In this document: positions 1,723 through 22,700 of the stretch, piece by piece
How the letters are laid out: each line of letters opens with the position of its first letter
How positions within the stretch are numbered: position 1 is the first letter of the stretch
Assembly (NCBI GenBank): GCA_002331145.1
Contig: DCYT01000001.1
Span: forward strand, 154,002 to 218,001
Source of the DNA: Candidatus Minusculum obligatum
GTDB taxonomy: Bacteria; Patescibacteriota; Minisyncoccia; Phycocordibacterales; Phycocordibacteraceae
Direction: 5' to 3'
DNA length: 64,000 bases
Made by a program: the position numbers and the translations under genes
The notes under the pieces: generated by a model
Told to the model about the DNA's origin: nothing
What the model saw: the letters and a program-made list of their open reading frames with translations, nothing else
Database searches by the model: none

Positions 1723-2645
1723 GGGACACTCTCCGCGAGCGTGACATTTAGCTCTACGCGCGAATATCCGTTGAACGATCCGACGCTTTGAGCGGTAGCA
1801 CTTTCGATCAGGTCAGTTTGCGCTAAAGCCTGAGCGAATTCCTGAGCGCCAGCGACGTCGTCAGCTAAGAGTTCGAACCGGGCTGTCACATGACGCCCGG
1901 CGATCTGGATATTCAACCCGGCCCAGCTCTGCGGTTTATGGGCTGCAAGCGTATTGAGAACGTCCACAGTTGCCCGGCTTTTGATTCCGCTCGGAGTTTG
2001 ACGGCCATTTAGATCTTCAACCTGCCGCGTCGCATCCCTAAGGCTTTGCCGAGTGATACGCTGGTGAACTTGTGCGGATGCAAGACTGCGGTCGAACCGA
2101 TCGCTCCACGCACTGGATGCCGTCACCAAGGCCAGCGCAAAAAACGCAAGACTTGTGCCCGTGAGTAGGAATCGACGCCTGACGCGATCGCGCTCCACTT
2201 CGCCGCGAAGGATGATGGCCTCGCCGCCTTGCCCTCGCGCTTCAAAAGCATCGATCGCGACACCGGCGCTCTTCGCATCATCCCTTAGTCTGGCCAAATC
2301 CTCGTTGCTGACCGCAACGGCATGCCAAGAACCATCGTCCTGCTTCTGCTCTACAGCATAGGTGATGGCATCAAGCGGTAAGGGAGATAGACGTTCGGCC
2401 TGCAGCGAAAAACCGCGCACTGCCTCATGGTAGTCGTCGGTTGAAATTGGAAGACGGGTGCGAAAAAGCGCATCTTCGTCAAGCCGTAGAACAACACAGC
2501 GCTCGGCCAGCCCCAGCTCGTCAATGCTGACCGTTTTGCTCGATCGATCGCGAAGTCCCGCAGGCAACCACGCCCCCGCATCGTCAATCCAGCTGATGAG
2601 TTGATCGAGCCATACTGCCAACACAGAGCGCCAATCCTGCTTCAT
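1719..2645 (-). CDS. gspL: Type II secretion protein GspL.
   Basis: 308-aa protein with a cytoplasmic actin-like N-domain, a central transmembrane segment (LLTGTSLAFFALALVTASSAW) and a periplasmic C-domain. Its stop overlaps the gspM start. Confidence 0.6.
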   Translation of the reverse strand: MKQDWRSVLAVWLDQLISWIDDAGAWLPAGLRDRSSKTVSIDELGLAERCVVLRLDEDALFRTRLPISTDDYHEAVRGFSLQAERLSPLPLDAITYAVEQKQDDGSWHAVAVSNEDLARLRDDAKSAGVAIDAFEARGQGGEAIILRGEVERDRVRRRFLLTGTSLAFFALALVTASSAWSDRFDRSLASAQVHQRITRQSLRDATRQVEDLNGRQTPSGIKSRATVDVLNTLAAHKPQSWAGLNIQIAGRHVTARFELLADDVAGAQEFAQALAQTDLIESATAQSVGSFNGYSRVELNVTLAESVP

Positions 2646-3226
2646 TGTGCGGCCTCAAAGCAGCGGCGGCCGATAGCGTCATAGCGACAATTGCGTTGAG
2701 CTGTAACCCGCTGCCCGCTCAACGCAACGATCTCGGTCCCGCCTCGCACGCTCTGTGACAGGATAAGCGTCGAACCATTTGGCGAAAGATCCTCCATTTG
2801 CAGAACATATCCCTGCCCCTCAAGCAGCAGCACGATTTCACTATCGTCGGCAGATTGCCAAACGAGTTCCGTATGCTCATCGCGTTCACTTAAATTCAGC
2901 GACTGATCCTGAGCGTTGTTGGCCCTGAGCGTCTCTGGATCTAGCGGCCCCGTTTGGGCCGTCTCTCGGGTAACACGATCAAGGAAATGCTGTATTTGCG
3001 CCGTGCCATTTCGGGCGGCACGATCCTCGCGCGTGCGGTTATAGCGATCAGTCAGACCGATCAGGCTATGCGTTGCGATCGCCGCTATGACAGCGAAGAT
3101 TGCCAAAGTCACAAGCATTTCCATCAGGGTAAAGCCGTCATCGGCACGACGTCCGTACGATCGAGAACAATCCGTCTTTCCTGGCCCTGCCAGAACCAAA
3201 CTATCTCTGCGGTGATATCGACCCAT
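2642..3226 (-). CDS. Minor pseudopilin (GspH/GspJ-like). The ORF extends to 3283, but the likely start is an internal Met.
   Basis: Prepilin motif DDG|FTLMEMLVTLAIFAVIAAIA followed by about 165 aa of mature domain. Confidence 0.7.
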   Translation of the reverse strand: MGRYHRRDSLVLAGPGKTDCSRSYGRRADDGFTLMEMLVTLAIFAVIAAIATHSLIGLTDRYNRTREDRAARNGTAQIQHFLDRVTRETAQTGPLDPETLRANNAQDQSLNLSERDEHTELVWQSADDSEIVLLLEGQGYVLQMEDLSPNGSTLILSQSVRGGTEIVALSGQRVTAQRNCRYDAIGRRCFEAAQ

Positions 3227-3516
3227 TTCACTTCCACCCCAGCTAACTGTCCCGGCCCGACCTCCTCGCGCCGCACACGCCAAACCGCTTCGATATCAAA
3301 AGGCTCCAGAGGTTCCCGCCCCTCTGCGACCATACCGAGTTCAAATCTGTGCCGTAAAACCGAAAGCGCGGCGGCTTCCTGTTTGATCTGGGTTTGGCGA
3401 GAAAGGCCATTGGTAACAGCCGAAGAGGCGCCAGCCACTGCGAGCGACAAAATGGTGACCGCAACCAGCGCTTCTATCAGACTGAAGCCCTCTTCGGATC
3501 GGCGCGCCGCCTTCAC
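3124..3516 (-). CDS. gspI: Minor pseudopilin GspI.
   Basis: MKAARRSEEG|FSLIEALVAVTILSLAVAG prepilin N-terminus on a 130-aa protein, which matches GspI size. Confidence 0.8.
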   Translation of the reverse strand: MKAARRSEEGFSLIEALVAVTILSLAVAGASSAVTNGLSRQTQIKQEAAALSVLRHRFELGMVAEGREPLEPFDIEAVWRVRREEVGPGQLAGVEVKWVDITAEIVWFWQGQERRIVLDRTDVVPMTALP

Positions 3517-4700
3517 AACGCCGCCGCATCTGGAAGCGCGGTGAGGCTCGAAAAGAGCGTAACCACCATCAAGCCGATGACAAAACCCAGCAAAATGATG
3601 ATCAGAGGACCTGCCAAAGACGCAATCCGTTCTAGCCGAGTTTCAGCGCGCTCTGCTAGCGTCAAACCGGCCTCAGCGACTAGATCGGCAAAACTACCGC
3701 CACGCATCCCAAGGCGTGAGGCTTGAACGATAAGATGTCGCTCACCAAGCGCTTCGCTAAGCGCGACATCAAGCGATCCACCTTGTCGGACCGAATGGGC
3801 CGACACCAAGAGCCGATCTTTGAGGATTGTATTCGAGGTGGCTGCGCTGGCTTCGGCCATGGCGTCACCTGCGGGTGTTCCTGCCTTGAGCAGAGCAGCG
3901 AACAGCCGGGCAAAAAGCGCGATGTCGATCGCTTCGGCCAGCCCCATCCCTAAAGGCCCTAAAGCGACCTGATCACGCCAACGCGCCATGTGGGCCCGTA
4001 AGGCGGGGATCTGACCCAACAAAATTGCAGCGAGAACCGCAATCAGCATCGCGACCAAAACACTCGGTGCCGCGTCCGAAACCGCCAGCATCCAACGCGC
4101 GCTTGCCGGCATGGCCTCGCCCAGACTTTCAAACACCGGGCGCAGACTGGGAATGACCACGAGCAAAAAAACCACCAACACACCAAGCGCCGTGATGGAG
4201 ACCACCGACGGGTAAAGCATCAGCGAGATGATTTTTTCGCGAAAGCGAGCTGTCGCCGTAAAAAGGGGAGCGGCCGCCTTGAGAGCATCTGCCAATCGCC
4301 CAGAACGCTCCCCCGCCGCCACAACAGCCGATAAAGCCCGTCCAGGCGCGCCTTCAAGGCCCGCAAAGGCCTCGCCGGGCCCCTGTCCCTGCGCAAGTCG
4401 TTTTGCGGCAAGCTCTAACGCATGGCGAGCCGCACGGCTCTCCTGAGCCTGCGACGCCAGAGCCGTCCCGGCTTCAAGAGGCACACCGGCCGCAGTCAAC
4501 CTTGCGATTTCTGAACTTAAACGCCCCGCATCCTTAAAGCTTAGCTTTGGTGTGGCATCGGCCTTGGCCTCGCTCACACGTATGGGCGAGAGTTGTTGAT
4601 GGGCCAAAAGTTCGATCACCTGCGGGGTATTCGCCGCCTCGATCTCGCCTTTGACACGCTCTCCTTTTCCGGTCCGGGCGATATAACGATATGTCGTCAT
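3513..4700 (-). CDS. gspF: Type II secretion inner-membrane platform protein GspF.
   Basis: 395-aa polytopic membrane protein with duplicated T2SS-F domains and three transmembrane segments. It sits adjacent to gspE. Confidence 0.85.
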   Translation of the reverse strand: MTTYRYIARTGKGERVKGEIEAANTPQVIELLAHQQLSPIRVSEAKADATPKLSFKDAGRLSSEIARLTAAGVPLEAGTALASQAQESRAARHALELAAKRLAQGQGPGEAFAGLEGAPGRALSAVVAAGERSGRLADALKAAAPLFTATARFREKIISLMLYPSVVSITALGVLVVFLLVVIPSLRPVFESLGEAMPASARWMLAVSDAAPSVLVAMLIAVLAAILLGQIPALRAHMARWRDQVALGPLGMGLAEAIDIALFARLFAALLKAGTPAGDAMAEASAATSNTILKDRLLVSAHSVRQGGSLDVALSEALGERHLIVQASRLGMRGGSFADLVAEAGLTLAERAETRLERIASLAGPLIIILLGFVIGLMVVTLFSSLTALPDAAAL

Positions 4701-6352
4701 GCCGCCTCCAAAGCACGCAAAACTTCATCGACCGACGTGAGACCTTGGCTGGCTTTGACAAGACCGTCGGTCAACAAGGGGGCCGCAACATGCGCACGCA
4801 TGGGGGCAAGCGATCCACGCTTGCGCACCAGTGCGGCAACCTCGTCGTCAAACACCAAGGTTTCCGAAATCACCATCCGCCCAAGGAAACCACCGCTACA
4901 GGCACTACATCCGACAGGACGGCGAAACCCTTCTCTCAAATTCGACATATTCGCCCGATCGATCAGCTCGCGTGGCGTCTCCGTCGGCTTGGAGCAATGC
5001 GGGCACAAACGCCGCACCAGCCGTTGCGCACTCGTTGCGCTTAGGGTTGCAGCCAGAAGATAGGGCTCGACCTCCATCTCAATAAGGCGGATCGGAACAC
5101 TGGCTGCGTCATTGGCGTGAATGGTTGATAGAACCAGGTGGCCTGTGAGCGCCGCCTGTACAGCAGTTTTTGCTGTGTCGGGATCCCGGATTTCACCGAC
5201 CAGAATGATATCGGGATCGTAACGCAGGAAGGCTTTGAGGGCGCTGGAAAACGTCAAATCAGCTGCCGGATCAAGCTGAGTCTGGTGGACATCCTCGAAA
5301 AAATATTCGATCGGGTCTTCCACCGTGACTATTTTACGATTTGGCGCTCGCAAGGCATTAACCGCAGCGTATAACGTGGTGGTTTTACCGCCCCCGGTTG
5401 GGCCGGAAACAAGGAACAGCCCCTGCGGTTTGGCGACAGCCGTGCGGATTTTCGTAATCTCGCTACCTCGAAACCCCAGATCCGCAAAATCAAGCTCGAC
5501 GTCGGCCCTATCGAGCAAACGGATTACCGCGCCTTCGCCATGAGCAGATGGGATAATGGAAAGACGTACATCGATCGGCCGGCCGCGCGCGCTCAATGCA
5601 GTCCTTCCATCCTGAGCCCGACGATGGTCGGCGACATCAAGGTCGCCGAGGACTTTCAGCCGGGCGATAAGACCATCGGTCATCCCGGGCGAAAGCCTCT
5701 GCCGTTCCTCCAATTGACCGTCAATGCGAAAACGAATGCGCCCGCCATCGGGCTTACGTTCGACATGAATATCCGAAGCACGCATTTCGACGGCTTCGGC
5801 AACCAGGCTTTCGACAAGACGAACAGCCGGCGCATCGAGTGACAGGTCGCGGATGCCGCCCGCGTCCTGTGTCCAGCGCGCTCCGCGCCCACGTGCCCCG
5901 CTGGATGGTGCATCGCTTTCACTACCATAAAGGCGATCAAAGGTTCGCCGCCATGCATGAAATCCGATCGTGGAACACCGGACTGCCAGGCCGGTTGCGA
6001 AACGCACCCCTGCTGCGACTTCATCATCGCTCGGATCGACCACGGCCAGATGAAGCCCCGCATCATCCTGTTTTAGGGGCAAGGCCCGGTGGGTTTTGAG
6101 AAAACCGGACTGGAGTTTAAGGTCAAGCGCTGCGTCCGGGACATCTTCCATTGAAACGATTGGAAGACCGTAGGCCGCCGCCAGCGAGGCCACTACATGA
6201 TCGTCCTGCAGCAACCCCAGCCGGCTAATAACAACCGGCAATGGCTCTCCCGTTTCCGCCTGAGCTGCCGCCGCACGGGCTGCCGCTTCTGGAGTGAGGC
6301 CGGCCGCTTCGAGGTGCTGCAACATCATCATGCGGAGACCTCTCCCGGGCAT
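4697..6352 (-). CDS. gspE: Type II secretion ATPase GspE.
   Basis: Walker A GPTGGGKTTTLYAAV, Asp/His boxes and the C-terminal tetracysteine CPHCSKP...CSACSGGF zinc motif. The N1 domain is present. Confidence 0.9.
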   Translation of the reverse strand: MPGRGLRMMMLQHLEAAGLTPEAAARAAAAQAETGEPLPVVISRLGLLQDDHVVASLAAAYGLPIVSMEDVPDAALDLKLQSGFLKTHRALPLKQDDAGLHLAVVDPSDDEVAAGVRFATGLAVRCSTIGFHAWRRTFDRLYGSESDAPSSGARGRGARWTQDAGGIRDLSLDAPAVRLVESLVAEAVEMRASDIHVERKPDGGRIRFRIDGQLEERQRLSPGMTDGLIARLKVLGDLDVADHRRAQDGRTALSARGRPIDVRLSIIPSAHGEGAVIRLLDRADVELDFADLGFRGSEITKIRTAVAKPQGLFLVSGPTGGGKTTTLYAAVNALRAPNRKIVTVEDPIEYFFEDVHQTQLDPAADLTFSSALKAFLRYDPDIILVGEIRDPDTAKTAVQAALTGHLVLSTIHANDAASVPIRLIEMEVEPYLLAATLSATSAQRLVRRLCPHCSKPTETPRELIDRANMSNLREGFRRPVGCSACSGGFLGRMVISETLVFDDEVAALVRKRGSLAPMRAHVAAPLLTDGLVKASQGLTSVDEVLRALEAA

Positions 6353-7197
6353 GCTGGATTGGCAGCGCCCAGTTTATCCCATGCCTGTATCCAGTAGGGG
6401 TCAGCCGGGTCGCCCGTAAACCGGACGAGCACGGAAACACCACGCCCAGCCAAATTGTCTTCGACCCAGCGCAGCTCCAATCCCAACAGGTCTCCGCTCC
6501 CAAAACTTACCGGTGGCGCGGCCTGTCTTGCCTCACCGCCCGGGTCCAGATTAAGCGCACCAATCAGCCAGGACGGAGCAAATCGCGCATCGGGCGTTTC
6601 TTCCCAGGTCGAAACGGTAATGTGGGACCTCAAACAGAAAACGAGTTCGTCGGTCGCCCCAAGAACAAATTTGAGCTCGTCTTCGTGCCGGAAGAAGCGA
6701 TTGCCCGGGGCGGGCAGCCCGGCGGCGGCATATTCGCGGGCCTCGGCGCCATTATTGGAGCGAAGATCGTCCGGATCACGCCAATCGATGATCGCGGCCG
6801 ACAGCGTGTCTGGCTCCGACGCCCCGGCTGCCGTCAAGAGGACCTGCAATACCGATTGCGGCGCAGCGTTTATGTCGACCCGGCCGAGCGGTGAGAAAAA
6901 CCGTGCTTCCAGCGCTCCAGTGTTCGTCTGGACGACAAAGCCCTCACCAAACTGGATCGGCTCTGTCCCTGTCGCCACAGTACGCAATGCCAAGGCGAAC
7001 CCGGACCGCAGGGCCGCATCCTGCTCGACCAAATGCTTCTCTTGGCGATGAAGATAAGCCGTATCCAGCACGATCTGGATCGTAAGAATGGCGATCGCGG
7101 CGAGTATGACGGTCAAGGCCAGCGCAGAAACGAGCACGGAACCGCGTTCACGGTCCCCGTTCCTTGTCTCAATTCGCTCTGCGCTAGCCATCGCCAA
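6328..7197 (-). CDS. gspK: Minor pseudopilin GspK.
   Basis: N-terminal RGSVLVSALALTVILAAIAIL pseudopilin-like helix that lacks Glu+5, which is typical of GspK. A region INAAPQSVLQVLL...IIDWRDPDD resembles the GspK helix-hairpin-helix / DW(I/R)D motif. Confidence 0.7.
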   Translation of the reverse strand: MAMASAERIETRNGDRERGSVLVSALALTVILAAIAILTIQIVLDTAYLHRQEKHLVEQDAALRSGFALALRTVATGTEPIQFGEGFVVQTNTGALEARFFSPLGRVDINAAPQSVLQVLLTAAGASEPDTLSAAIIDWRDPDDLRSNNGAEAREYAAAGLPAPGNRFFRHEDELKFVLGATDELVFCLRSHITVSTWEETPDARFAPSWLIGALNLDPGGEARQAAPPVSFGSGDLLGLELRWVEDNLAGRGVSVLVRFTGDPADPYWIQAWDKLGAANPACPGEVSA

Positions 7198-9166
7198 ATC
7201 CTGATTGGCGGATGCGGTTCATCCGCGTGCGCAAATCTCGTGTCGCCGCCAGGGCATCTTCGCGCGATCGCATCACCCGCGGAGACAGGAAAACCAACAA
7301 TTCGGTCCGCCGTGTCGTATCGGACGTATCGCGGAAAAGATTGCCAACGACTGGCGCGTTCTGCAGCGCCGGCAACCCTGAGCGCGAGCGCGTCTGCTGC
7401 GCACGGATCAACCCGCCCAGCACGACCGTCTCGCCATCATAGAGCGAAATCATGGATTCCAGCCGGCGTCGCTGGATCGTCGGCGAGTCGATGCCGGATG
7501 TTGTCGTTTCCGATACAGAGCTGACTTCCTGCACCACACCCAGGACGATCAAACCGTTCGGGTCGATGCGAGCCGTCACGTTGAGCGTGACACCGGTGTC
7601 GCGGAACTGGATCGAATTGACAATCGGTGCATCGGGATCGGCGACACTGACGGCACTCTGCGTGACGATAGGAACCTGATCGCCCACCTGCACGACCGCG
7701 GACTGGTTATTGCGCACGACGATCTGCGGCGCCGACACCGTCTCCACCTCCGTCAGGGACGAGATCGCGTTGAGCGCAGCGCGTACATAGTCGGACGCAT
7801 AAGTGTATGAAAAACCAGGAAAGCTCGACACCACAGAGCCGCTGGTCGTCGAGGTCGAGGTCGCCTGGCCGCCATCGCGCGTATCCAAAAACCACTGCAC
7901 GCCGTAACGCAGATCATCCGTCAGCACGACTTCGATGATAAGCGCCTCAATAAGAACCTGATCCGGCGCCCGGTCGAGCTGTTCGACGACATCCTCGACC
8001 TCGCGATGCCCCTGATCATTGGCCGAGATGAGAAGACTATTCGTGCCCTCATCGGCCCGTACGCTGATCGCGCTGTTTGAGGACACCGCAACGTCCGAGG
8101 AAAAAAGATCGGTGAGATGCTGTGCCACTGTAATCGCATCGGAATTGACCAGACCGCGCACCCGAACTTGCCGGGTTTCCTGAGGGTGCACATCCAGGCG
8201 TTCGACCCAGGCTTCAACTTGATCAAGGCGGTAATCATGCTTGGCGATTGCCACGACCGCATTGAGCCGGTTGAACGGCACGAATTCGATCTGCGAACCG
8301 ACGGGTCCGTCCGGTCCGCCTAGAATGGAGTTGAGCTCGGCCACGATCGCGTCCGGCGACGCCGCACGCAGCGGATATAGCCCGAAGGACATCTGATCGA
8401 GCCAATCGACATCGAACAGCGAGACCATTTCCAGCATGGCTTCAAGTTGAGCCGCACTTCCGGAGAGGATCAGGATCTCGCGCGGGGCATCCACCACAAC
8501 ATGACCGCCCGTCCGCCGGAAAGGTTCTAAGAGGCCGGACATATCCTGAGCCGAGGTATAATTGAGCGGCACGATCAGAACGCTTTGGCCGGGCGGTATT
8601 CCGTCGCGGACTAAACGCGGCGCGGCGACGAAATCCTGGGAGCGGCTGGAATTGGCGACGATGTAACTTCCATCCGCGCTCTGGCTCAAACCATAACCGG
8701 AAAGCTGCAAGGCACGGTCGAGCACACGCGGTATATCCTGCTGCCGAACCGGCCGGGTCGAACGCAAACTGACCCGGCCGTTCACATTGGGATCGATCAC
8801 GAAGGCCTCGCCCAACATATCGCCGAGCACCGCAGAAACGACTTCCTGGATGGGCGCATCGTCAAAGGCGAGCTGAATGCTGTCGCGCTCGATGCGGGAT
8901 TGATTGCTGCTACGCGTCAGGGGGCTATCATTCACCTCGGACCTGAAAGGTGCAACTGTCCCTGCCGCTGTTTCAGCCTCAAACAATGGTGCCGGCGCCT
9001 CGCCGGTATCGTCGCCGTTGTCAGAAGGTCGCGTCGCCTGACCAGCCGGAGCCTGCAAAAGCGGATCGGCTAGGCTGAAAACACCGTTCTCACGCAGACC
9101 ACTCGACGCGCAAGCCGAGACGGCGAGCGCGCCCGCCAAAACCATCCAAAATCCTGTTAGTCGCAT
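7184..9166 (-). CDS. gspD: Secretin GspD with an N-terminal lipobox (lipo-secretin).
   Basis: C-terminal secretin domain (VVLGGLIRAQQTRSRSGLPALQNAPVVGNLFRDTSDTTRRTELLVFLSPRVM). The signal peptide ends in ALAVSAC, a lipobox. N0-N3-like repeats are present. Confidence 0.9.
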   Translation of the reverse strand: MRLTGFWMVLAGALAVSACASSGLRENGVFSLADPLLQAPAGQATRPSDNGDDTGEAPAPLFEAETAAGTVAPFRSEVNDSPLTRSSNQSRIERDSIQLAFDDAPIQEVVSAVLGDMLGEAFVIDPNVNGRVSLRSTRPVRQQDIPRVLDRALQLSGYGLSQSADGSYIVANSSRSQDFVAAPRLVRDGIPPGQSVLIVPLNYTSAQDMSGLLEPFRRTGGHVVVDAPREILILSGSAAQLEAMLEMVSLFDVDWLDQMSFGLYPLRAASPDAIVAELNSILGGPDGPVGSQIEFVPFNRLNAVVAIAKHDYRLDQVEAWVERLDVHPQETRQVRVRGLVNSDAITVAQHLTDLFSSDVAVSSNSAISVRADEGTNSLLISANDQGHREVEDVVEQLDRAPDQVLIEALIIEVVLTDDLRYGVQWFLDTRDGGQATSTSTTSGSVVSSFPGFSYTYASDYVRAALNAISSLTEVETVSAPQIVVRNNQSAVVQVGDQVPIVTQSAVSVADPDAPIVNSIQFRDTGVTLNVTARIDPNGLIVLGVVQEVSSVSETTTSGIDSPTIQRRRLESMISLYDGETVVLGGLIRAQQTRSRSGLPALQNAPVVGNLFRDTSDTTRRTELLVFLSPRVMRSREDALAATRDLRTRMNRIRQSGFGDG

Positions 9167-9481
9167 AATGATCCCGTACGCGCTTAAGGGGAAACTCTGG
9201 CATTAGAGGGGCGTTGGAGCAAGCTTGGAGGTGGGTAATATTTCTGACCTGAGACCCATTTGGTCCCGGGCCTGTTTAAGAAAGTGCGGTCAGGTTTTAC
9301 AGGGCGATCCACAACGAGTGTTATTGGCGGAGGCGGGCTGGCCGGGTTGTAGTCGAAGCTCACCGAATCGAATGGTGCGTGTCGCCATTTATTCGTTTAT
9401 TCGCCTACGGAAAAAGGGGTCTGTCCCTACTTTTCCATTAGAACTCACACCTAGACCGGTTCACGGATGGTCGCTCGAATC

Positions 9482-9859
9482 TCACTTTCGACGCCAGAAA
9501 ATCAGGGCGCCAGCGGTGTTGATAACTGCTGCCCCGGTTAGAAGAACCCAAAATTGAAACGAAACCGCGCCCTCTGCAATACCTAGTTCGACGTAGTGAC
9601 CAAGTGATAAAGTAGAACCCAAAACAATCGCCAAAAAGCGAAGCTCCTTTGGGTTTAGGACAACCAATAGACTCCAGAAAACCAGGGCAAACACTATCCC
9701 GAGTTCCAACCGGCTGAACGCATCAATCAATACGTCTATAAAAACCTCAACAATAGCGGCAATCAGGCCGGCAACAAATATCCGAAAAGCCGCTTGTTGT
9801 AGTGCCATATTCCCCGTTTTCATTCCGCGTTCTCTATCCATACAGCACTTCAGTAGCAA
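9482..9859 (-). CDS. Small polytopic membrane protein; candidate immunity protein for the upstream RHS toxin.
   Basis: 125 aa with three or four hydrophobic helices. It lies immediately downstream of the RHS toxin gene on the same strand, a position typical for RHS immunity genes. The start is possibly an internal Met (MALQQAAF). Confidence 0.5.
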   Translation of the reverse strand: MLLKCCMDRERGMKTGNMALQQAAFRIFVAGLIAAIVEVFIDVLIDAFSRLELGIVFALVFWSLLVVLNPKELRFLAIVLGSTLSLGHYVELGIAEGAVSFQFWVLLTGAAVINTAGALIFWRRK

Positions 9860-10039
9860 CCTAAGTCTACACTCGCAGAAATCTACAGTCTGATGCAGCA
9901 GAAAAACCTACCAGATCCAAACGTTTTCTTCGTTCTGTAATACGATCTCACGAACTGAAATATTCCGAAGCTAGCTCTCATTCATTGATTAGAGACTATT
10001 CTTTTGCCCAACATGCATCACTTTAATAGCAAGCGCATA

Positions 10040-13000
10040 CTAATCGACATCTTCAATTGTCACTGTGCCTTCGTCGCGGCGAATCCCCCCTGCACCACGG
10101 TTGGCAAATGAGACCATCCAGCCACCGTATCCTCCCCCAACCCCAGACTCGCCATTACGGGCTTCGGTCACGGGGTCTTGGGTTGGAATATCCACAATAG
10201 AAACGCTACCCTCCGCAATGTCGTTGGCTCCAGGCCGGCTCAAACGAATTCCCGGCGACCAACCATTTTGTGGATCATATGTGGAAATATCCACTATTGA
10301 AACGGTTCCATACCTGGCTGGACCACCATTGCTGATAACTCGATTCCCGACTGCTCCGACAATATCAGCACCACCTTTGACCAGGAGAACACCTGCGGTC
10401 ACGCGCCAAGTGGTCGCGGCCGCCTGGGGATTACACGTGTAGCCAGCGACGCCGCCAGCGGCTCCGCCGACGATGAATCCATTTACAGCCGCACCTAGAA
10501 GTTCGCGACCGGTAGCGCGGCGGCCATCGGCGAGTCCAGTAGATGTCGCTGTGACAAACATCTCCCAACCGGCGGCGGCCACGCCGCCGATAATAGCCCC
10601 ACCGACAGCGGACAGAGGCGTGCCACACTCCCCATTGGGATCCGTATAATTCACTGGATCCCCGCCGACGTAGGCATAGATATTCAAGCCTCCGGCCTGC
10701 CCGATTGGGTCGGTTTGCATGAAGCGGCCGAAGCCGGGGTGATAGGCGCGAGCCTTGTAGTGGTAGAGGCCGGTGTTTTCCAAGAAGACCTGACCGGTAT
10801 AGCCAAACCGGCCGGAGTTTCCCGAATACGGCATGCCGTATTCGTCATAGGTATTGATCTGGGTGGCGTTACCCGAGCCGTTGGTGTGCGCCACGATCGA
10901 GCCGCGCTCGTCCGCGATCAACCACTCCCGGCTGGACGTGCCTGAACCAGTGTACTGAACCAGAGGTTCGTCTATGCCCGGTCCATGCACATAGCGTTTT
11001 TGCAGCGCACCCGATCCATTGTATTCGGCAATTAGATCAAGCCCGTCATACTGGAAGTTCAGCGTGGCTGCGCCCGTCGTCTGCGCCAGACGGCCCAAAG
11101 GATCATAGGACAGCGTGGTACCGCCGGAGACGCTGGTGAGACGGTTATAGTAGTCATAACCGAAGGTCCGCGTGCCATCGTCCGTCATATTGCCCCGCCC
11201 GTCATAGGTGGGGGCAGGCTGAGACGTAACTGAGGTGATCTGGTTGAGGCCGTTATGGCCGTAAAGCAGATCCATATTGACGTGCCCATTCCAGGTAAAA
11301 GCGTCATTACTATCCGTACGCGAGGTGATCTGACCGGCCGGATTATAGTCGAAGCTCACCGTCCGGTCGTTCGACGTACCTGCCAGGTTCTGGCTGAGAC
11401 TATCAAGACGCGAAGCTGCATCGAAGGCATAACTGGTCGTCACGCCATTGCCCCGCGTGATGCTCGTACGGCGGCCATAATCGTCATAGCTGAACTGGGC
11501 GAGAACACCCACGCCGGAGCCGGCTCCGTTCTCGCGGATCGCGGTGGGAGCGCCTAGGGTGTTGTAGTCGTATGTGACGTAAAACCCGTCCGCCCAAGTC
11601 ATACGCGTGCGTTGGCCCAGATTATTGTACTGATAGCTCACCGTGCCATTGGCACCGGTCTGAGCTGTCCTACGGCCCAAGGCATCATAAGCGTTGGTCA
11701 CCGTGCCCTGACCCGCGGCCGTGACCGTCAGAACCCGGCTTAACAGATCATAGCTGTAAGAGGTGTCGGCCTGACCAGACGGTGCGTTTACGTTCGTCAC
11801 CCGGTTCAGATTGTCATAGCTGTACTGGAAAAGCTGGTTCGTGCGCACCCGGCGCGAGGCTAGGCGCCCATATGCATCATAGGTGTAGATCTCGTCGTCA
11901 TTGCCGGTATTGGAGCCGGGAGAGGACGGGTGCGGGTATTCGATAGAAGCCAGACGATCAAAACCATCACGCAGATATTGCGTGCGATTGCCGTTTCCGT
12001 CCTTCAGGCTTTCCAGGAGACCATTGGCGGTAAAGGTGGACACGCCCTCGATTGCCGCCGCAGAGGTCCCATAGGCCGTCGTTACGCTGGTCACACGGCT
12101 CAGATCGTCATAACTGCTGCGCGCGATCCGGTCGGGACCGTAGACACCGGCCGTTCCCAGTGTACACGCCGAAGACGGGGGCGAGGCGAAGGTCGAGGGG
12201 TTAATACGCTGAGCTGTGCAGTCCAGACGGCCTGCACTATCATAGGAATACTGGATCAGTGCCTGGGTCACACCCGTCCCGTCGATAAGACGGCTGTGGG
12301 TGACACGGTGGTTATTGTCATAGGTGACCAGCTGATAGTCGCGCCGGGCGAAGTTGTTCCAGGCTGCATCCGACTGGCTCGTCACCGTACCGAACTCGAC
12401 CATGCGCACACGACCAGAACTGTCATACGTCGTGCGCGAAGCGGCATGTTTGAGCGGACCGCCCCCATCCGGGTCCGGGCCCACCTGGCCGATCACCCGG
12501 CGAAGATCGTCGTAACGCGTGCGCGTCAGATCGGCAGAACCTGAAAGCGGGCCGTCCACCGTCAGAATATTCCCCACGGCGTCATAGGCCAGTGTCGAGG
12601 TCGCTGAGAGCGTGCCATTGCCCGCCATCGCGGTAACCGCTGTGGGCTGAAGGTTGTTGGCCACACCGCTGGAACCATAGGCGATATTGGTGCGCTGCTC
12701 ATTCGCCGTGCCGGCACAAGACGACGATGTGCCGGTGGAACACGCTGCAGATTGATGCGGCAGATAGATCGCAGAAGACGCCTGTACCATCTGACCAGAG
12801 GCGTTTTTGTACCAAGCATAATGCGCAGAATAGCTCACCCGAGTCTGCGGCCGGTCACCGGAACCGGACGGCGCCGGAGCTGTTGCCGTCAGCATTCCGC
12901 CATGCGTGCCCGCATAGGTGAAGTTCGTGGTATTGCCCGCCGGATCGGTCACCGAGGTCGGCTGGTTGCACGTGCGCTCATTCAAACACGAAGACGGATA

Positions 13001-14278
13001 AGACGCCGTAGTCACGATGTCTGCCAGGCCCGAACCGGACTTGGCCACCGCACGCACCTCCGTCATATTGCCCCGGCCGTCATAGCTAAAGCTGGTGTAG
13101 TTGCCCTCCGGCGCCGTGACGCGGGAGACACGCAGGTCAGAATTGTACTGATAGGTCGTGCGGTGGCCTAAAGCGTTCTCAACCGCAGTTAAGAGCCCGT
13201 CATCACCCTCAAATTCATAGCGCGTCACTTCTCCGGCAGGATCGGTGACTGTGGTCACCAGCGTGCCGCCATTGTCGGTGTAACTATAGAACCAAGTTTC
13301 GCCCGCAACTGTCATCGACTGTATGACGCCCGACGTACCGATATAGTTGATCGAGACATCATTGCTGGAGCTGCCTGGCAGGCGCACTCCTGTGATCCGG
13401 CCCGAGCCGTTCCGATAGGTGTGCGTCACGCGACCCAGATTGTCGGTGTAGGACCAATTGGAGCTGGTATAGTTCATCGTCAGGCTCGGCCAATTTTCCG
13501 TCAGGCCCGAGCATGTATTCGCCGTGCGCGAACAATAATTGACCGCATTATTGATGAGCCTAGCCGTCTTCACAGTACGCCAATCGTTCAACTGGCTCTG
13601 AGAACCTACGTTGGACGCGCGCCGGTATTCGAAATGGAGCTGGTATCCGCGATTGGTGGTGACGGATTGGAGCCGGTAATAGGGCCCGTAGGTGACGATG
13701 ATCGGTTCCGGCCAGCCGCCTTGCTGAATAACCATGTTCGTGGAGCTGTAGTGGTAGGTCCACTCCTCCCCATTCGGGAAGGTCACCTTTGTGAGCACAC
13801 CCTCGTCGGCACCGTAAAACGACGTCTGCCCCACCTTCGAGGACGAGAAGGTCGCCACAACCCCGCCGCCCGTCGTGTAAGTGTAATTGCCGCCGCTATA
13901 AGTCAGCGTAGCACCATTTTCCTGTTCCGGCGAATACGTACTGCCAGATTTGGTGAAGACTTCCGTGCCGCCAAACAGGCTAACTCGATATTCGGTAGAT
14001 GTTTGGGCATGGACGGTCCCCATCACCGAATGCGACCAGCCATTATCTTGAAAAGTCTGGCTGTAACTCAGTCCGCCCGCACCAGCGTCGCCGATAGAGA
14101 TCTCTGGCGAAGACCCGGTAAACACATCGTCGGAGAGGTCGACGCCACGCTCATCAAATGTGGGATAGATCCGCGGCTGGCTCCCGCCATCCTGGGCCGA
14201 AGCGATACTTAAACTGGCAATTGAAACGGACAGCGCGGCGACCAAATGCGAAACAAGCGAACGAACAAGCAACATCAA
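10040..14278 (-). CDS. Secreted RHS/YD-repeat polymorphic toxin with a C-terminal glycine-zipper toxin domain.
   Basis: Sec signal peptide (MMLLVRSLVSHLVAALSVSIASLSIASA). Dozens of YD repeats (YDPLGRL, YDALGRR and others). RHS core ...GRFMQTDPIGQAGGLNIYAYVGGDPVNYTDPNGE. This is followed by about 240 aa of variable C-terminus with GxxxG-rich hydrophobic stretches (AVGGAIIGGVAAAG; GFIVGGAAGGVAG) and an internal VSIVDI repeat. Confidence 0.9.
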   Translation of the reverse strand: MMLLVRSLVSHLVAALSVSIASLSIASAQDGGSQPRIYPTFDERGVDLSDDVFTGSSPEISIGDAGAGGLSYSQTFQDNGWSHSVMGTVHAQTSTEYRVSLFGGTEVFTKSGSTYSPEQENGATLTYSGGNYTYTTGGGVVATFSSSKVGQTSFYGADEGVLTKVTFPNGEEWTYHYSSTNMVIQQGGWPEPIIVTYGPYYRLQSVTTNRGYQLHFEYRRASNVGSQSQLNDWRTVKTARLINNAVNYCSRTANTCSGLTENWPSLTMNYTSSNWSYTDNLGRVTHTYRNGSGRITGVRLPGSSSNDVSINYIGTSGVIQSMTVAGETWFYSYTDNGGTLVTTVTDPAGEVTRYEFEGDDGLLTAVENALGHRTTYQYNSDLRVSRVTAPEGNYTSFSYDGRGNMTEVRAVAKSGSGLADIVTTASYPSSCLNERTCNQPTSVTDPAGNTTNFTYAGTHGGMLTATAPAPSGSGDRPQTRVSYSAHYAWYKNASGQMVQASSAIYLPHQSAACSTGTSSSCAGTANEQRTNIAYGSSGVANNLQPTAVTAMAGNGTLSATSTLAYDAVGNILTVDGPLSGSADLTRTRYDDLRRVIGQVGPDPDGGGPLKHAASRTTYDSSGRVRMVEFGTVTSQSDAAWNNFARRDYQLVTYDNNHRVTHSRLIDGTGVTQALIQYSYDSAGRLDCTAQRINPSTFASPPSSACTLGTAGVYGPDRIARSSYDDLSRVTSVTTAYGTSAAAIEGVSTFTANGLLESLKDGNGNRTQYLRDGFDRLASIEYPHPSSPGSNTGNDDEIYTYDAYGRLASRRVRTNQLFQYSYDNLNRVTNVNAPSGQADTSYSYDLLSRVLTVTAAGQGTVTNAYDALGRRTAQTGANGTVSYQYNNLGQRTRMTWADGFYVTYDYNTLGAPTAIRENGAGSGVGVLAQFSYDDYGRRTSITRGNGVTTSYAFDAASRLDSLSQNLAGTSNDRTVSFDYNPAGQITSRTDSNDAFTWNGHVNMDLLYGHNGLNQITSVTSQPAPTYDGRGNMTDDGTRTFGYDYYNRLTSVSGGTTLSYDPLGRLAQTTGAATLNFQYDGLDLIAEYNGSGALQKRYVHGPGIDEPLVQYTGSGTSSREWLIADERGSIVAHTNGSGNATQINTYDEYGMPYSGNSGRFGYTGQVFLENTGLYHYKARAYHPGFGRFMQTDPIGQAGGLNIYAYVGGDPVNYTDPNGECGTPLSAVGGAIIGGVAAAGWEMFVTATSTGLADGRRATGRELLGAAVNGFIVGGAAGGVAGYTCNPQAAATTWRVTAGVLLVKGGADIVGAVGNRVISNGGPARYGTVSIVDISTYDPQNGWSPGIRLSRPGANDIAEGSVSIVDIPTQDPVTEARNGESGVGGGYGGWMVSFANRGAGGIRRDEGTVTIEDVD

Positions 14279-14337
14279 TCCCTCTTCGGGCGAAGATAAA
14301 AAAACGGGTATTTGGGCAGGCTGAAAGAACTGCGCTC

Positions 14338-14538
14338 TTAAGCGCCGGTTTTCTTCTTGCGCGTGCGGTTATCGGCGTCGTCGTATTCGTAATCCGTCGT
14401 TACCCCATCATTGGGGCCGCCGGAGTGCTCGACCTTCACCAATCGCCCCTGGGCGTCATAGGTATAAGTCACAGTCTCGGACGCAAAAGCCGGGGCGGAA
14501 AAAGCCATCACCCCGGCCAGCAATAGTGCTGCACGCAT
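14338..14538 (-). CDS. Small secreted YD-repeat mini-protein.
   Basis: 66 aa. The signal peptide MRAALLLAGVMAFSAPAFA is followed by two YD motifs (TYTYDAQGRLVKVEH; DYEYDDADNRT). It lies 60 bp upstream of the RHS gene on the same strand. Confidence 0.5.
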   Translation of the reverse strand: MRAALLLAGVMAFSAPAFASETVTYTYDAQGRLVKVEHSGGPNDGVTTDYEYDDADNRTRKKKTGA

Positions 14539-14883
14539 ACTTCCCTCCTACCCATGAACACGATTTCCAGTGGGCCTGATCCACACGACTAGACCTGCCC
14601 AATTCGCGCATGAGATAAAAATGTAGGCCGAAATCAGCGCCACAATCAAGGGGGACTTTTGGATTCAATACCATTTTTGCGCGTATTGTTTTTCGGGGAA
14701 ACCGCATGCACGCCTGAGGCGTGATATAGATCACGCTCTGCATATAGCTGTGCCACAAGGAAACCTATTTCCCTTTGAAAAAGGAACGAGAGACCGGAGG
14801 GTCTCAGGTCATCCGCCATCGACGAGACTGATCTGTTGCCGCCGAAAGTCGTCGATCGATTTCCTTTTGTTTTTCTCCGGTGG

Positions 14884-15242
14884 ATCTAACCCATCTTCCC
14901 ATCGCCTGACCGTCCGCGCATCCACGTTAAGCCAATCCGCCATTCGATCTTGCGCCCAACCTCTTTGGGCCCGAAACCGATAAAGTCTGTCTGAGAAGGT
15001 ACCGCTTGGCAGTCAGCTATCATCCTCCAAGAACCGAACTATGGCGGGAATGTGTTGACGCGCAGGGCATGTTCGCCGCGCTCCCACATCCCTATCACTT
15101 CGTGATGGACACCAATCCGGCTTGCGACTTCACGCTTCGAAAGGCGTAGCGCTTTTCTGCGCACTGACCCAGCCCCCAGATTGGGACTTATGAACCTTAT
15201 TCCCGGGCCCAACATGCAGCAACCTAATTCCCATGCCCGCAC
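14884..15242 (-). pseudogene. Frameshifted C-terminal fragment of a large serine recombinase that keeps only the tandem XRE-type HTH domains.
   Basis: Two minus-strand frames read ...LSKREVASRIGVHHEVIGMWERGEH... and ...DRLYRFRAQRGWAQDRMADWLNVDARTVRRWEDGLDPP. These align to the last about 110 aa of the 642-aa recombinase (LGVHHEMIGLWERGEH / ERLYRFRAIRGWTQNEFGKWIGVDGRTIGRWEAG). No catalytic domain lies upstream. Confidence 0.65.
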
Positions 15243-19718: not shown

Positions 19719-22700
19719 ATGCCTGGGTCTAACCCAAGAAAAAACCGGAACTTCACGGCCGCGGCATGGGAAAGTGTTCTCACTTGGCGAACCCTAAGCG
19801 ACCATGAGCGTGCGTCAATAAAGGCGAGCAAGAACGACCCGGATCGCGAGAAGCTGCGCCTCGCGGGCAGCTACTATGACCGCCACGAAGTTAAAAAGAA
19901 CGGTTGGATCTACGGCGAGGCGGATAACGGGATGGAAGTCTCGGAAACCGGCCTTGGTTGGAAGTTCCGTGCGCGTATCATCTGGCATCTGTTTGAAGAG
20001 ATCTCGACCTATCCAGGCCTAGAGATCAAAGATCTCCAGGATCTCGTTCGGGATCACGATGATCAAGTGACATCCGTCACTCGTAGTGCTGCCTCCAGCG
20101 GCCCGAAACCCGAAGCAATCCGCTTAGATTATCTTTGCGACCTCGGGTACCCGGGCAAACCTGCCATGTATGAGCGTAGTTTCAATGCGCTGCTTCGCTG
20201 TGCATTCGACACGTTTGTCCAGAAAGCCAATGAGAAACTGGACTTCGAAACATTCGTTAAGCGTTGCAAGGAAACTCCACTCACCGACCGCGACGCGCCG
20301 GCCCAATTCCAACGCTTGCTAAGCCGCGGTTTCGTGGACATCCAATCGCAATTCGATATCAAGCCCGAACGAAATCTCTATAGCCTCGATCTGCGTCAGC
20401 CAGCGCTCGACGCGCTGGCAACATTTCTGCGGAAGTCAGATTATCGTCCAGTTCAAACGGTGCACAGCAAGAACAATCGAAGTGCGCTGACGGCGATCGC
20501 CGACCGGATCCACCGGATTGGCGTCGAGTATCAAACGAAGAGTGACGATGGTGATCTAGTCGCCAAGACTTATTTGCTCGCTGGAGATCAGCGCCCTTGC
20601 CTTTACCTCCGAGCCTCGCGCGTCAGCAAGGAGCGGCCCGTCACCCTGCCGCAGCTCGTCGGCAAACTTAAAGCCTTCTACCTCGGCGAAGCGGTGGAAA
20701 CCGCACCGACACCAACATCGCACGCGGAGTATCTGTCCGCGCTGAAATTCGTCCGTTCCGCGGTCATGCAAACGCCAGCGATCATAGTGTTCGATGGTCA
20801 TCGCTCCCCACGCGGTTGGCCGACCGCCCTGCCGAGCCTCATCTCTGATGATGGATTGTCGACGCTCCTGCGCGATTTACTGACGCCGCGCCTCAGCCAA
20901 CGCGATGCGCAACTAGATGTCCGCGCGTTCTACAAAACCCGCATCCTGGTATTGACGGACGACGAATTCTCAGAGGACGGCGAGGGTAAGAAACCGCCGC
21001 TTCAGGTACACCCGCTACAGCAACAGAAACCGATCAACATTGTCGCCCCCGATCCGGACGATATCCCTCAGCTGATCGACGACCACAAATGGCAGAATAA
21101 AACGAGCTTGAAGAGCATCGCTCAAAGCCGGTCAGCGAGCTTCGTCGATGGTGCGGTGCTGCGATTGACCGACACTTGGTTGACCGTTGTCGGTCACACA
21201 TACAATTTGGAGCGGGATCGAAACAGCGCGCTCAATTCCCTTCTCGGAAACTCATCTCGCGATTTAGCGGACGCGATGAACGAGCACCTGCTCGAAAACA
21301 AGCCTTCCGCGTTCTTGCTCCTGCGATGGATTGCGCTCGCGGAAAGCGAGATCCGCGCCTCGACGCTCGCGCGCCTCCTGACGAGTTGGAATTATCTCGC
21401 AGCCAAACGCAGCAAACGCCAGGGACAGTCCGGGATTGCACAAGCGAAAGCCGTGCCCACGAAAGATATCGTTAAGCTTCTGGAACCATTTGATTCCATT
21501 CTAACCTACGGACCAGATGAAAGTATGGACGGGCTTGATGGCCCTTACTTTCCACCGATCGAACGAATTCCGATCGCACGCAAAAAATCATCGCCCATCC
21601 CCGCCTATCGTCGAACTCGCTCTTACTCTTTCGTGACGAATCAAATCTGTTCGGATTTTCTGGAGTTTCGCCGCGATGACGACGCGCTGGAGGCTGAGCG
21701 GCTTGACATGTACCGGCTCCTCGCCGAGGAAGCCTTCCGGCAAGAAGCGGCGATCATGCGTCATGCACCGCGAGCTGCGTCACTAAACGTCCGCCGCCTG
21801 CGCCGCATGTGTGAAGGGCTTCATTACGGGTTTGCCAGCTTGCCCAACGATCCGTCGAGTATCGACCAGTCGCTGCGCGTCCTAAGCCGAAGTCTCGCCG
21901 TAAATCCGAGAAACGCATTCAATCATTTGTATCTAACTTTTTACCGGCACGTCTTGCAGCATGCGCCAGATTTTGCACTGACCCGCAATTTGGGGCGGCC
22001 AGCAATCGCTTCCGATCTCATCATGAGTGCGGTTTGGTGCGGCATTCGCAACCCGCCGGTCCACCGGACTACTAGTCTACCGCCAACCAATTCCCCGTAC
22101 TTGAACCCAGACCTCAGCAGGTCTGAATCACACAACCTGCCCGATAATGGGATACGCGAAAAGAATACGCACAAGGCACTCGCCAAAGACATCTATGTCT
22201 CGCTAATTCGCAACCTCATCAACGCAAACCGCCTGGACCTAGCTCATTCGGCGCTTGAGAAGGCCAAGGAAAACTGGACCGGTCCACGGGCCAACGGCAC
22301 GGGCCTGGATGCCCTTTCGAAAGTCGAGATCGACTTGGAATTGCTGCGGACGGATCCATCGCGCAATATCGCCAATATCAAGGGGCTATTCGATAAAGTT
22401 CTTATCGCGGGACCGCGCAGATGGCGCCTACTGAAATATCGAATTGAGAAAACAGTGCGCTGGCTGCCGAGCCGCCTCAATAAAGCCGGACCGTTTGAAG
22501 ATCTGACCAATGTCTACGACTTTCATCATCAGCTAAAGTCCGACATCAAGGCAGCGGCGGTTCAACTGACCCGCGGCATGAGCACACAGGATATTGAACG
22601 CGGTGCGGATCTATTCGCGCGCCTGGCCGAAGCGGAAGCCATACGAGCAGACAGTAGCTCAGACAACACGGATAAGATCGCGCTATCACGCTTCGTAACC

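Follow-up and report, generated by a model that had tools for sequence, protein, structure and literature searches.

A 64-kb stretch of contig DCYT01000001.1, assigned to Candidatus Minusculum obligatum (assembly GCA_002331145.1; hereafter, the window) and read here as DNA of a marine alphaproteobacterium, encodes a large secreted RHS protein, a small membrane protein directly downstream of it, and a compact cluster of type II secretion system (T2SS) genes. We consider it probable that this locus is a polymorphic, Sec- and T2SS-linked RHS toxin operon of bacteriocin-like character rather than a source of type VI secretion system (T6SS) effectors. An earlier note on this DNA, made from the sequence alone, had proposed an exported RHS toxin with a membrane-active C-terminal domain, an immunity partner, and palindromic operators. 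The gene order, from upstream to downstream, is a decayed XRE-type regulator gene, a 66-amino acid (aa) open reading frame (ORF) with YD motifs, the RHS gene, a hydrophobic small ORF, and gspD-K-E-F with pseudopilin genes (Table 1). All coordinates are positions in the window, and the genes named here lie on the minus strand unless another strand is given.

Export Signal and Cocoon Core of the RHS Protein

The RHS ORF (10040-14278) encodes 1412 aa when read from a TTG start and 1411 aa when read from the ATG at 14275, and its N-terminus, MLLVRSLVSHLVAALSVSIASLSIASA followed by QDGG, is a plausible Sec/signal peptidase I signal by hydropathy and on the Hessa scale. Both the 1412-aa length and the Sec signal had been put forward in the earlier note. 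Searches of the protein against Pfam and NCBIfam returned RHS families only, with no PAAR, VgrG, or other T6SS-type N-terminal domain, as also anticipated. Pfam placed six RHS_repeat matches in the protein (E = 2e-48), and the Rhs_assc_core domain (TIGR03696; 76.9 bits versus a cutoff of 32.5) occupies residues 1144-1216. The core terminates in DPNGE, the end point that the earlier note had recognized.

An AlphaFold2 (AF2) model of residues 28-1216, computed from a 53-sequence alignment, is all-beta throughout, with a predicted local distance difference test score (pLDDT) of 88.3 and a predicted template modeling score (pTM) of 0.80. The best Foldseek matches of this model are T6SS-linked Rhs cores (E ~1e-45, TM-score up to 0.69), in the order Salmonella bongori Rhs core, RhsA, Tse5, and Tse15, followed by teneurins and TcB/TcC. 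Sequence likeness to solved structures is confined to RHS residues ~795-1216. Judged from the model, the mature core of the RHS protein is one complete cocoon, and no PAAR- or VgrG-type N-terminus was detected. Near the end of the core, an Asp pair (D1189/D1212, or D1162/D1185 in the mature protein), 23 residues apart within the motif RxYxPxxGRFxxxDP...DPxG, is invariant in 53-112 relatives. The positions altered in TccC3-D651A and Tse15 D1369N/D1391N, cleavage mutants with solved structures, are spaced in the same way, and D1189/D1212 are presumed to be the catalytic pair of a C-terminal aspartyl autoprotease motif.

The core also contains eight conserved Cys residues arranged in four close pairs (mature 221/228, 403/409, 485/493, and 659/677; window ~12164-13534), invariant or nearly so in 53-112 members. 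From these four pairs, we infer disulfide formation outside the cytoplasm. Several family C-termini have Cys at both their start and their end, an arrangement that fits disulfides in an exported protein.

A Large Family with Swapped C-Termini

A search with the whole RHS protein gave 1370 matches. The best 120 are ~1400 aa long and come from Maricaulis, Glycocaulis, Caulobacter, Brevundimonas, Terricaulis, Hyphomonadaceae, and many sphingomonads. The relatives span 83-87% of the RHS query, i.e., the core, and then diverge: nearly all of 115 relatives have a signal peptide at the N-terminus, and their C-termini, between 150 and 340 aa long, are unrelated. None of the 114 other family C-termini resembles that of the window RHS by phmmer or BLAST. 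These comparisons support the view that the RHS C-terminus is a swapped polymorphic module within a large, mostly alphaproteobacterial family.

Thirty of the 115 family C-termini (P0004-P0121) contain the motif [DEQN][IVLT][IVLT]V[TSVNI][AG], typically (D/E)(D/E)IVVTGxR, which shuffled sequences yielded 1.0 times on average and four times at most. Its density is 1.47 per 1000 aa in C-termini versus 0.01 in cores, and most copies lie within the first 93 residues of the C-terminus, often behind Gly-rich stretches. A like motif stands at the TonB-box position, just before the Plug domain, in three of five alphaproteobacterial TonB-dependent receptors (DEVVVTG, RDVIVTG, and ERLTVTG), and all TonB-dependent colicins have their own TonB box (PMC11658791). 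The TonB-box-like motif of the family would mark many members as diffusible bacteriocins imported via the Ton system; it suggests that many of these RHS proteins are colicin-like and taken up in a TonB-dependent manner. A literature search found no paper connecting TonB boxes with Rhs C-termini.

The Variable C-Terminus and the Adjacent Membrane Protein

Because the core ends at DPNGE, the variable C-terminus of the window RHS measures 195 aa and not the ~240 aa previously estimated. It consists of 20% Gly and 13% Ala, and the hydrophobic GxxxG stretches seen earlier in this region correspond to two glycine-zipper segments (10553-10615 and 10442-10504) with a Kyte-Doolittle hydropathy of 1.5-1.6. 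The zipper runs, GxxxSxxxGxxxGxxxA and AxxxGxxxGxxxGxxxG, place five small residues at i, i+4 spacing and occupy C-terminal positions 2-18 and 46-62; a third, weaker hydrophobic segment lies at 10343-10405. On the Hessa scale, the zipper segments sum to ~+4.1 to +4.7 kcal/mol, i.e., they are marginally hydrophobic, and in our view could therefore pass the producer's Sec translocon without stop-transfer anchoring. The second half of the C-terminus is non-hydrophobic, probably beta-rich, and holds three G[TS]V[ST]I[VE]D[IV] repeats. Two of them, GTVSIVDISTYDP (10271-10309) and GSVSIVDIPTQDP (10172-10210), are the copies of the internal repeat already pointed out in the earlier note; the third is a degenerate copy, GTVTIEDVD, which forms the last nine residues (10043-10069).

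Downstream, 180-230 bp past the RHS stop, begins a small ORF with 3-4 transmembrane segments. Its polytopic nature, as stated in the earlier note, holds, whereas the length of 125 aa depends on the start codon: 125 aa from TTG 9859, 119 from ATG 9841, 113 from ATG 9823, and 108 from ATG 9808. Public annotations use the starts for 113 and 119 aa; the best Shine-Dalgarno sequence is found at ATG 9808. Three of the four hydrophobic segments sum to between +0.9 and +1.3 kcal/mol on the Hessa scale, and the protein can be drawn as four helices in an N-in/C-in topology that puts its basic residues on the predicted cytoplasmic face. It matched no Pfam family (E<=1), and its public copies are identical ones only, on three contigs, all from one and the same organism, in TARA and Logan assemblies. 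The GC content at third codon positions (GC3) is 0.505 in the C-terminus and 0.465 in the membrane ORF, versus 0.681 in the RHS core and 0.685 in gspD, a difference that makes the C-terminus and the membrane ORF look as if they had been acquired together, as a single cassette.

The two glycine zippers, together with the membrane immunity candidate, make a depolarizing or pore-forming toxin the best reading of the C-terminus. On sequence features, this activity is plausible, as is a role for the membrane ORF as the cognate immunity protein. Membrane immunity candidates are common in the family, as the first downstream ORF has at least two transmembrane-like segments in 26 of 56 non-redundant loci.

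A Conserved YD Mini-Protein

Between the RHS gene and what the earlier reader had called the promoter region lies a further gene that had been overlooked. It encodes a mini-protein with two YD motifs (RHS_repeat, E = 6e-9; YD_repeat_2x, E = 2.7e-8), whose hydrophobic N-terminus closes in AFA followed by SE, leaving a mature part of ~46 aa. In at least 37 of 82 loci, the gene directly precedes RHS and shares its strand; examples are L004 (9742-9942), L006 (9745-9945), L007 (9737-9937), and many of L008-L087. The consensus of the mature mini-protein is ETVTYTYDAxGRLVKVxxSGxVNNxVTTxYxYDxADNRT. In the Terricaulis and Hyphomonadaceae relatives, its place is taken by a ~330-aa protein encoded in divergent orientation, which begins with the same YD part and continues into a long Gly-rich tail. 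The mini-protein is a conserved partner of the RHS protein and could serve as a cocoon cap, a chaperone, or a secretion adaptor.

Linkage to a Compact Type II Secretion System

The gspD gene starts 316 bp beyond the membrane ORF, on the same strand, and opens a cluster of nine ORFs in which GspE, GspF, GspK, and the pseudopilins score under the NCBIfam equivalog cutoffs, indicative of a compact, divergent T2SS. No family match to GspC, GspL, or GspM was found in the cluster with Pfam or NCBIfam; the three ORFs at 761-2645 could be L/M/C analogs.

The same gene order is present in a Maricaulis contig (L007/L008), whose RHS protein is 59% identical to that of the window. Here, one finds XRE, an A24 prepilin peptidase, a 66-aa YD ORF, RHS, variable small ORFs and a pectate-lyase-like gene, followed by gspD-K-E-F and a pseudopilin (gspG). 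The pectate-lyase/beta-helix protein of L007 (16295-17701), whose gene separates the RHS cassette from gspD, may be another substrate of the cluster.

We analyzed the RHS flanks (~9.4 kb upstream and ~7.8 kb downstream) in 80 species-representative genomes that had been retrieved by means of an N-terminal profile specific to the family. The family RHS gene is flanked by at least two T2SS components in 8 of the 80 genomes and by at least one in 10; for 8/80, the binomial p is 1.5e-6 at an assumed background of 1% and 2.8e-3 at 3%. The T2SS-linked genomes are labeled Maricaulis, Caulobacter, Caulobacteraceae, Sphingomonas, Sphingomonadaceae, Parasphingorhabdus, and Amphiplicatus, with varying gene orders and orientations. 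A further case is the conjugative plasmid pASTEX02 of Asticcacaulis excentricus CB48 (NC_014819.1; L091/L092, 892-36324), where four RHS genes flank one compact T2SS on both sides. This T2SS includes GspD, GspG, an A24 peptidase, GspE, GspF, GspMb/PilO, and others. Each of the three RHS N-termini read on the plasmid starts with a signal peptide, and the neighbors of the RHS genes include secreted YD proteins and a small transmembrane ORF. The reverse test, a GspD metagenome scan for RHS company, gave three loci only, too few to tell. The earlier note had placed the RHS gene directly beside a T2SS, and the gspD cluster indeed adjoins it; the conserved and recurrent synteny, as well as published T2SS-dependent RHS bacteriocins (discussed below), support a link that exceeds mere adjacency.

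The Upstream Region

The XRE gene is represented by a first part, the ORF at 15039-15242 (Pfam HTH_3, E = 1.2e-6), and by a second helix-turn-helix part in another frame, with a stop at ~14809. Compared to the intact 134-aa homolog in L004 (8733-9137), it has a frameshift and an in-frame stop (DDS*LPSG versus DESWLPNG); tblastn with the L007 homolog gave 59% identity at 15057-14881. The gene is split at about the same codon (after ...ERGxxxxRV) in the window and in Maricaulis L007 (8278-8614), the extra premature stop being present in the window only. The split could reflect decay that occurred independently in each, a slippery site, or a gene that normally consists of two ORFs.

Two inverted repeats lie between this gene and the YD mini-protein. 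The first, GCGTGAT-ATAG-ATCACGC, has 7-bp arms around a non-palindromic spacer and overlaps CACGCC-TCA-GGCGTG at 14709-14723. The second, GAGACC-CTCC-GGTCTC, has 6-bp arms (GGAG spacer on the other strand) and is followed by a T-rich TCGTTCCTTT; it directly follows the XRE stop and is terminator-like. The earlier note had described both as perfect palindromes at 14716-14733 and 14787-14802, positions that are 3 nt off, and both are in fact interrupted (7+4+7 and 6+4+6 nt).

The same note had regarded these repeats as candidate operators, and two observations speak for their being operators of the toxin operon: the repeat at 14719-14736 lies ~70 bp upstream of a conserved TTGATTG element, beside the decayed XRE-type gene, and L004 and L007 have a partly similar AGCGT...ACGCT element at the corresponding position. 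Inverted repeats are the usual binding sites of XRE-family regulators. However, with spacers of 0-8 nt, the window contains 0.7 inverted repeats with 7-bp arms and 2.05 with 6-bp arms per 500 bp, so the two repeats do not exceed chance. Moreover, the aligned relatives do not preserve the palindrome at 14719-14736, the other repeat resembles a terminator hairpin, and the candidate regulator is a pseudogene in the window. An operator function for these repeats is therefore very unlikely.

TTGATTG (14643-14649), a -35-like element, is invariant in the six aligned upstream regions (the window, L004, L006, L007, L012, and L016). A -10-like, CTAC-containing GCCTACAT stands ~16 nt downstream. The two elements, ~100 nt upstream of the ATG at 14538, are likely the operon promoter.

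Locus Layout and Genomic Context

The features of the locus are listed in Table 1.

Table 1. Features of the RHS-T2SS locus, in window coordinates, with the evidence for each assignment.
Feature	Coordinates	Strand	Basis
XRE-type (HTH_3) regulator, decayed	14809-15242	-	Pfam HTH_3; comparison with L004 and L007
Terminator-like hairpin	14790-14805	-	Hairpin scan; position relative to XRE stop
Interrupted inverted repeat, candidate regulatory site at most	14719-14736	.	Repeat scan
Likely promoter of the YD-mini-protein/RHS operon	14618-14649	-	Conserved TTGATTG; function inferred
Secreted YD mini-protein, 66 aa	14338-14538	-	RHS_repeat, YD_repeat_2x
RHS signal peptide, 27 aa, ASA/Q cleavage site	14195-14275	-	Hydropathy and Hessa-scale scans
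Mature RHS beta-cocoon, residues 28-1216 (predicted)	10628-14194	-	Pfam, NCBIfam, AF2, Foldseek
Variable C-terminal toxin candidate, 195 aa	10043-10627	-	Zipper segments, repeats, GC3
Candidate immunity gene, small membrane protein	9482-9859	-	Hydropathy and Hessa-scale scans, GC3
Compact T2SS-like cluster, nine ORFs	761-9166	-	Pfam and NCBIfam matches
gspD	7184-9166	-	TIGR02517, 402.6 bits vs. equivalog cutoff 351.35; N0, Secretin_N, and Secretin domains
gspK-like	6328-7197	-	T2SSK (Pfam); GspK 38 bits vs. cutoff 130
gspE-like	4697-6352	-	T2SSE (Pfam); GspE 454 bits vs. cutoff 630
gspF-like	3513-4700	-	T2SSF (Pfam); GspF 164 bits vs. cutoff 424
Two pseudopilin-like genes	3124-3516, 2642-3283	-	N_methyl (N-terminal methylation motif), sub-cutoff
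Three ORFs without family match	1719-2645, 1207-1722, 761-1225	-	Pfam, NCBIfam

Elsewhere in the window are three large serine recombinases as well as ParB-like and TrwB/T4 coupling-protein-like genes (1-568 (+), 23463-25391 (-), 39074-40609 (+), and 33400-36645), and the RHS-T2SS block may reside on an integrative element. The serine recombinase at 23463-25391 has C-terminal HTH_3 domains, and a region of this gene (23535-23711) matches the Maricaulis L007 XRE homolog at 46% identity. Two very large ORFs, at 19719-23453 (+; 1244 aa) and 30029-32908 (-; 959 aa), matched no Pfam family at E<=1e-5. No T6SS genes were found among the window's other genes, the annotation of which is partial.

Opposing Evidence and Alternative Readings

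Several observations weigh against an export-coupled, membrane-active toxin operon, and they concern the C-terminus, the T2SS link, and the integrity of the locus. At the protein level, E follows DPxG in the RHS core where L is usual. The last ~100 aa of the C-terminus are not hydrophobic. In the family, hydrophobic C-termini are not significantly associated with a transmembrane downstream ORF (11/18 vs. 15/38, p = 0.16).

No fold, family, or homolog backs any activity of the C-terminus in Pfam, PDB, protein, and metagenome searches. Neither a word-indexed protein search nor tblastn over metagenome contigs gave a relative; no Pfam family matched at E<=1, and the PDB sequence search returned a chance match only (E = 1.5). 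AF2 modeling of the C-terminus alone gave a pLDDT of 31.5 and no usable fold. The sole phmmer match among 1.84 billion representatives, the Gram-positive surface protein P0002, is spurious, a 27-residue beta-strand motif amplified by 13 repeats. The homologs on other toxin scaffolds that the earlier note had suggested looking for were likewise not found. These negatives are weak: used as a query, the C-terminus missed its own RHS protein in both protein searches, though the collection contains it, so that C-termini on clustered or non-representative RHS proteins can be missed.

The two distinct halves of the C-terminus allow a different division of labor, in which the zippers are an entry or translocation module and the beta-rich half with the three repeats carries the killing, receptor-binding, or TonB-binding function. 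There are precedents for such a separation. The glycine zipper of the T6SS DNase Tde1 is reported to be needed for translocation and not for catalysis (PMC10240207), and the ionophore toxins of contact-dependent growth inhibition have separate entry and ionophore domains (PMC11630599). Within the family, the glycine-zipper stretch of P0080 precedes a domain of its own that looks soluble, and the window repeats GTVTIED/GSVSIVDIP loosely resemble the variant TonB boxes GGVTVTE/GSVRVEAP of sphingomonad TonB-dependent receptors. However, a polytopic membrane immunity candidate suits a membrane-acting toxin better than a cytoplasmic enzyme, and Pfam and PDB searches found no catalytic motif or family in the C-terminal half. 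A TonB-box position-specific scoring matrix (PSSM) built from the family motif likewise gave no significant score on the C-terminus, the best window being AGWEMFVTATST (p ~0.1). Seven other hydrophobic family C-termini, including the suspected GIY-YIG-like tail of P0080, had no Pfam matches, which leaves the soluble domain of P0080 without a family. On this evidence, we find the divided-function model unlikely and retain membrane depolarization as the preferred activity.

The T2SS link faces objections of its own. No T2SS gene was present in the examined flanks of 70 of the 80 family loci, and the same Maricaulis metagenome-assembled genome that has a T2SS-linked RHS contains a second family RHS (L009) without a T2SS beside it. 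In the contigs of the closest relative, L004 and L005, the gspD beside RHS is cut to its N0/N1 part and is fused to, or followed by, an RHS C-terminal fragment, while the RHS gene itself is intact; RHS-T2SS coupling is therefore not obligatory. In these loci (L004 15630-19757 and L005 15630-17787), the T2SS was apparently lost through recombination involving RHS, and what remains of the prepilin peptidase in L004 is 62 aa. A tblastn search of the 64-kb window found no A24 prepilin peptidase (GspO), which is present in L007 and on pASTEX02.

These points, the mobility genes of the window (serine recombinases, ParB-like, and coupling-protein-like), and the location of the Asticcacaulis case on a conjugative plasmid would all fit a T2SS adjacency that is mere co-mobility on a genomic island, with the RHS protein exported otherwise (through a housekeeping T2SS or vesicles) or attached to the envelope and acting by contact. 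Yet, the linkage recurs in Maricaulis, Caulobacter, the Sphingomonas group, Amphiplicatus, and Asticcacaulis, with differing orders and orientations that make a single hitch-hiking event hard to invoke. Furthermore, the T2SS secretin is genetically required for the activity of the Xanthomonas RHS bacteriocin Bcn-A, and unlinked substrates can share one T2SS, so unlinked paralogs are no argument against T2SS export. We regard co-mobility as a rather doubtful explanation and favor export through the neighboring T2SS.

With the XRE gene a pseudogene and the prepilin peptidase missing, the local system may rely on genes elsewhere or be decaying. A decaying toxin island that is no longer deployed would explain the frameshift and premature stop in the XRE regulator and the state of the A24 prepilin peptidase of L007, which is missing in the window and truncated in L004. 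However, the RHS protein, the YD mini-protein, the membrane ORF, and the nine ORFs of the T2SS cluster are intact, and the lengths that were compared equal the Maricaulis ones. Loss of the repressor could equally give constitutive expression, and since the L007 XRE is split at about the same position, two ORFs may be normal. Decay of the island is thus improbable.

Proposed Mechanism

In the sequence of events that we envisage, the RHS protein and the YD mini-protein would cross the inner membrane through Sec. The cocoon would then fold in the periplasm, stabilized by disulfides, and enclose the self-cleaved C-terminus, and the neighboring T2SS would export the cocoon particle. On a competitor, the C-terminus would be released, and its glycine-zipper helices would assemble into oligomers within the cytoplasmic membrane, so that the membrane potential collapses. 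The protein with 3-4 transmembrane segments would shield the producer's own membrane.

A broader proposal can be advanced tentatively, and it is more likely to fail than to hold in full. It posits an undescribed, mainly alphaproteobacterial system built around a ~150-kDa diffusible, colicin-like RHS bacteriocin that uses Sec export and disulfides, a dedicated, mobile, compact T2SS, a co-secreted 46-aa YD hairpin, and C-termini that often have a TonB box. The window C-terminus would then be a new glycine-zipper depolarizing toxin, with its repeats as variant TonB-binding strands.

Relation to Known Systems

One of the closest published parallels is Bcn-A of Xanthomonas perforans, a 1398-aa RHS bacteriocin; its activity is found in cell-free supernatant, and mutation of the T2SS secretin gene xpsD abolishes it (Marutani-Hert et al. 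2020, PMC7259588). Its downstream immunity ORF is a predicted inner-membrane protein without homologs, and accessory small ORFs are needed for activity (PMC7259588). Bcn-A resembles the window RHS in its length of ~1400 aa and in the presence of a downstream membrane ORF without homologs, which in the window is a candidate immunity gene. It differs in coming from a gammaproteobacterial plant pathogen, in having its accessory ORFs downstream with no upstream YD mini-protein reported, and in not being reported beside a T2SS cluster; the two are likened here by description. Along the same lines, the Rhs families XRhs F VIII (Xanthomonas) and RRhs F II (Ralstonia) are syntenic with gspG and predicted to be exported by the T2SS (bioRxiv 10.1101/2025.05.08.652813). 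As in the window, a T2SS gene is adjacent and T2SS rather than T6SS export is predicted. These Rhs proteins, again likened by description, belong to other bacterial classes and are linked to gspG only, whereas the window has the whole gspD-K-E-F cluster.

For the toxin activity, a precedent is Tse5 (RhsP1) of Pseudomonas aeruginosa, whose non-enzymatic C-terminus of ~150 aa, with transmembrane and amphipathic helices, inserts into and depolarizes the membrane, and whose immunity protein Tsi5 is an integral inner-membrane protein (PMC9637101). The cocoon fold of Tse5 is like that of the window RHS (8cp6_B, E = 4e-41 in Foldseek), and the sequence similarity between solved Tse5 and the window RHS covers the RHS repeat region only. 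Unlike the window RHS, Tse5 has a PAAR-like N-terminus, lacks a signal peptide, and is delivered from the cytoplasm by the H1-T6SS. The window C-terminus matched no solved PDB chain, and the toxin domains of the two proteins are compared by description only. Another membrane-directed toxin domain, Tox-WTIP, is predicted to span the membrane with two helices; it occurs on RHS proteins that are trafficked by a signal peptide ('T2SS') in alpha-, beta-, and gammaproteobacteria (Zhang et al. 2012, PMC3482391). We rejected a Tox-WTIP identity for the window C-terminus, as it lacks the RxxR and Wx[ST]IP motifs that define this domain and no Pfam family matched at E<=1.

Pore-forming colicins and the glycine-zipper bacteriocins, among them Caulobacter CdzC/CdzD and microcin V, are released or surface-bound, depolarize the inner membrane, and are neutralized by small polytopic immunity proteins of that membrane. 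Microcin V is rich in glycine. CdzC and CdzD contain glycine zippers (PMC5380434). All of these bacteriocins are exported by lysis proteins or a type I secretion system as free proteins, whereas the window toxin would travel in an RHS cocoon along the proposed Sec/T2SS route. The window C-terminus had no sequence similarity to pore-forming colicins or glycine-zipper bacteriocins in Pfam or by BLASTP against CvaC, and a likeness to microcin V was discarded on the latter comparison (E = 1.7).

With Bcn-A, the gspG-linked Rhs proteins, Tse5, and Tox-WTIP published, the two main ideas of the earlier note have precedents. What is new here is an orphan C-terminus on a known class of T2SS-linked RHS bacteriocins and not a new system.

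Significance

Mechanistic work on Gram-negative Rhs toxins has dealt nearly entirely with T6SS injection, and for T2SS-linked Rhs proteins the record so far consists of a single genetic study and a comparative preprint, both on plant pathogens. The compact gene set of the present locus, comprising the YD mini-protein, RHS, an immunity gene, and gspD-K-E-F, suits asking how a cocoon exits the producer and how its cargo enters the target, and the cultured Asticcacaulis excentricus CB48 (pASTEX02) offers a ready test system. The locus described here and its relatives indicate that marine and soil Alphaproteobacteria commonly harbor this class, and that the toxin operon has several times been joined to a compact T2SS, once on a conjugative plasmid. 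The TonB-box-like motif of the family, if real, would suggest an import route, and the window C-terminus, together with its membrane ORF, would enlarge the small set of non-enzymatic, membrane-targeting polymorphic toxins.

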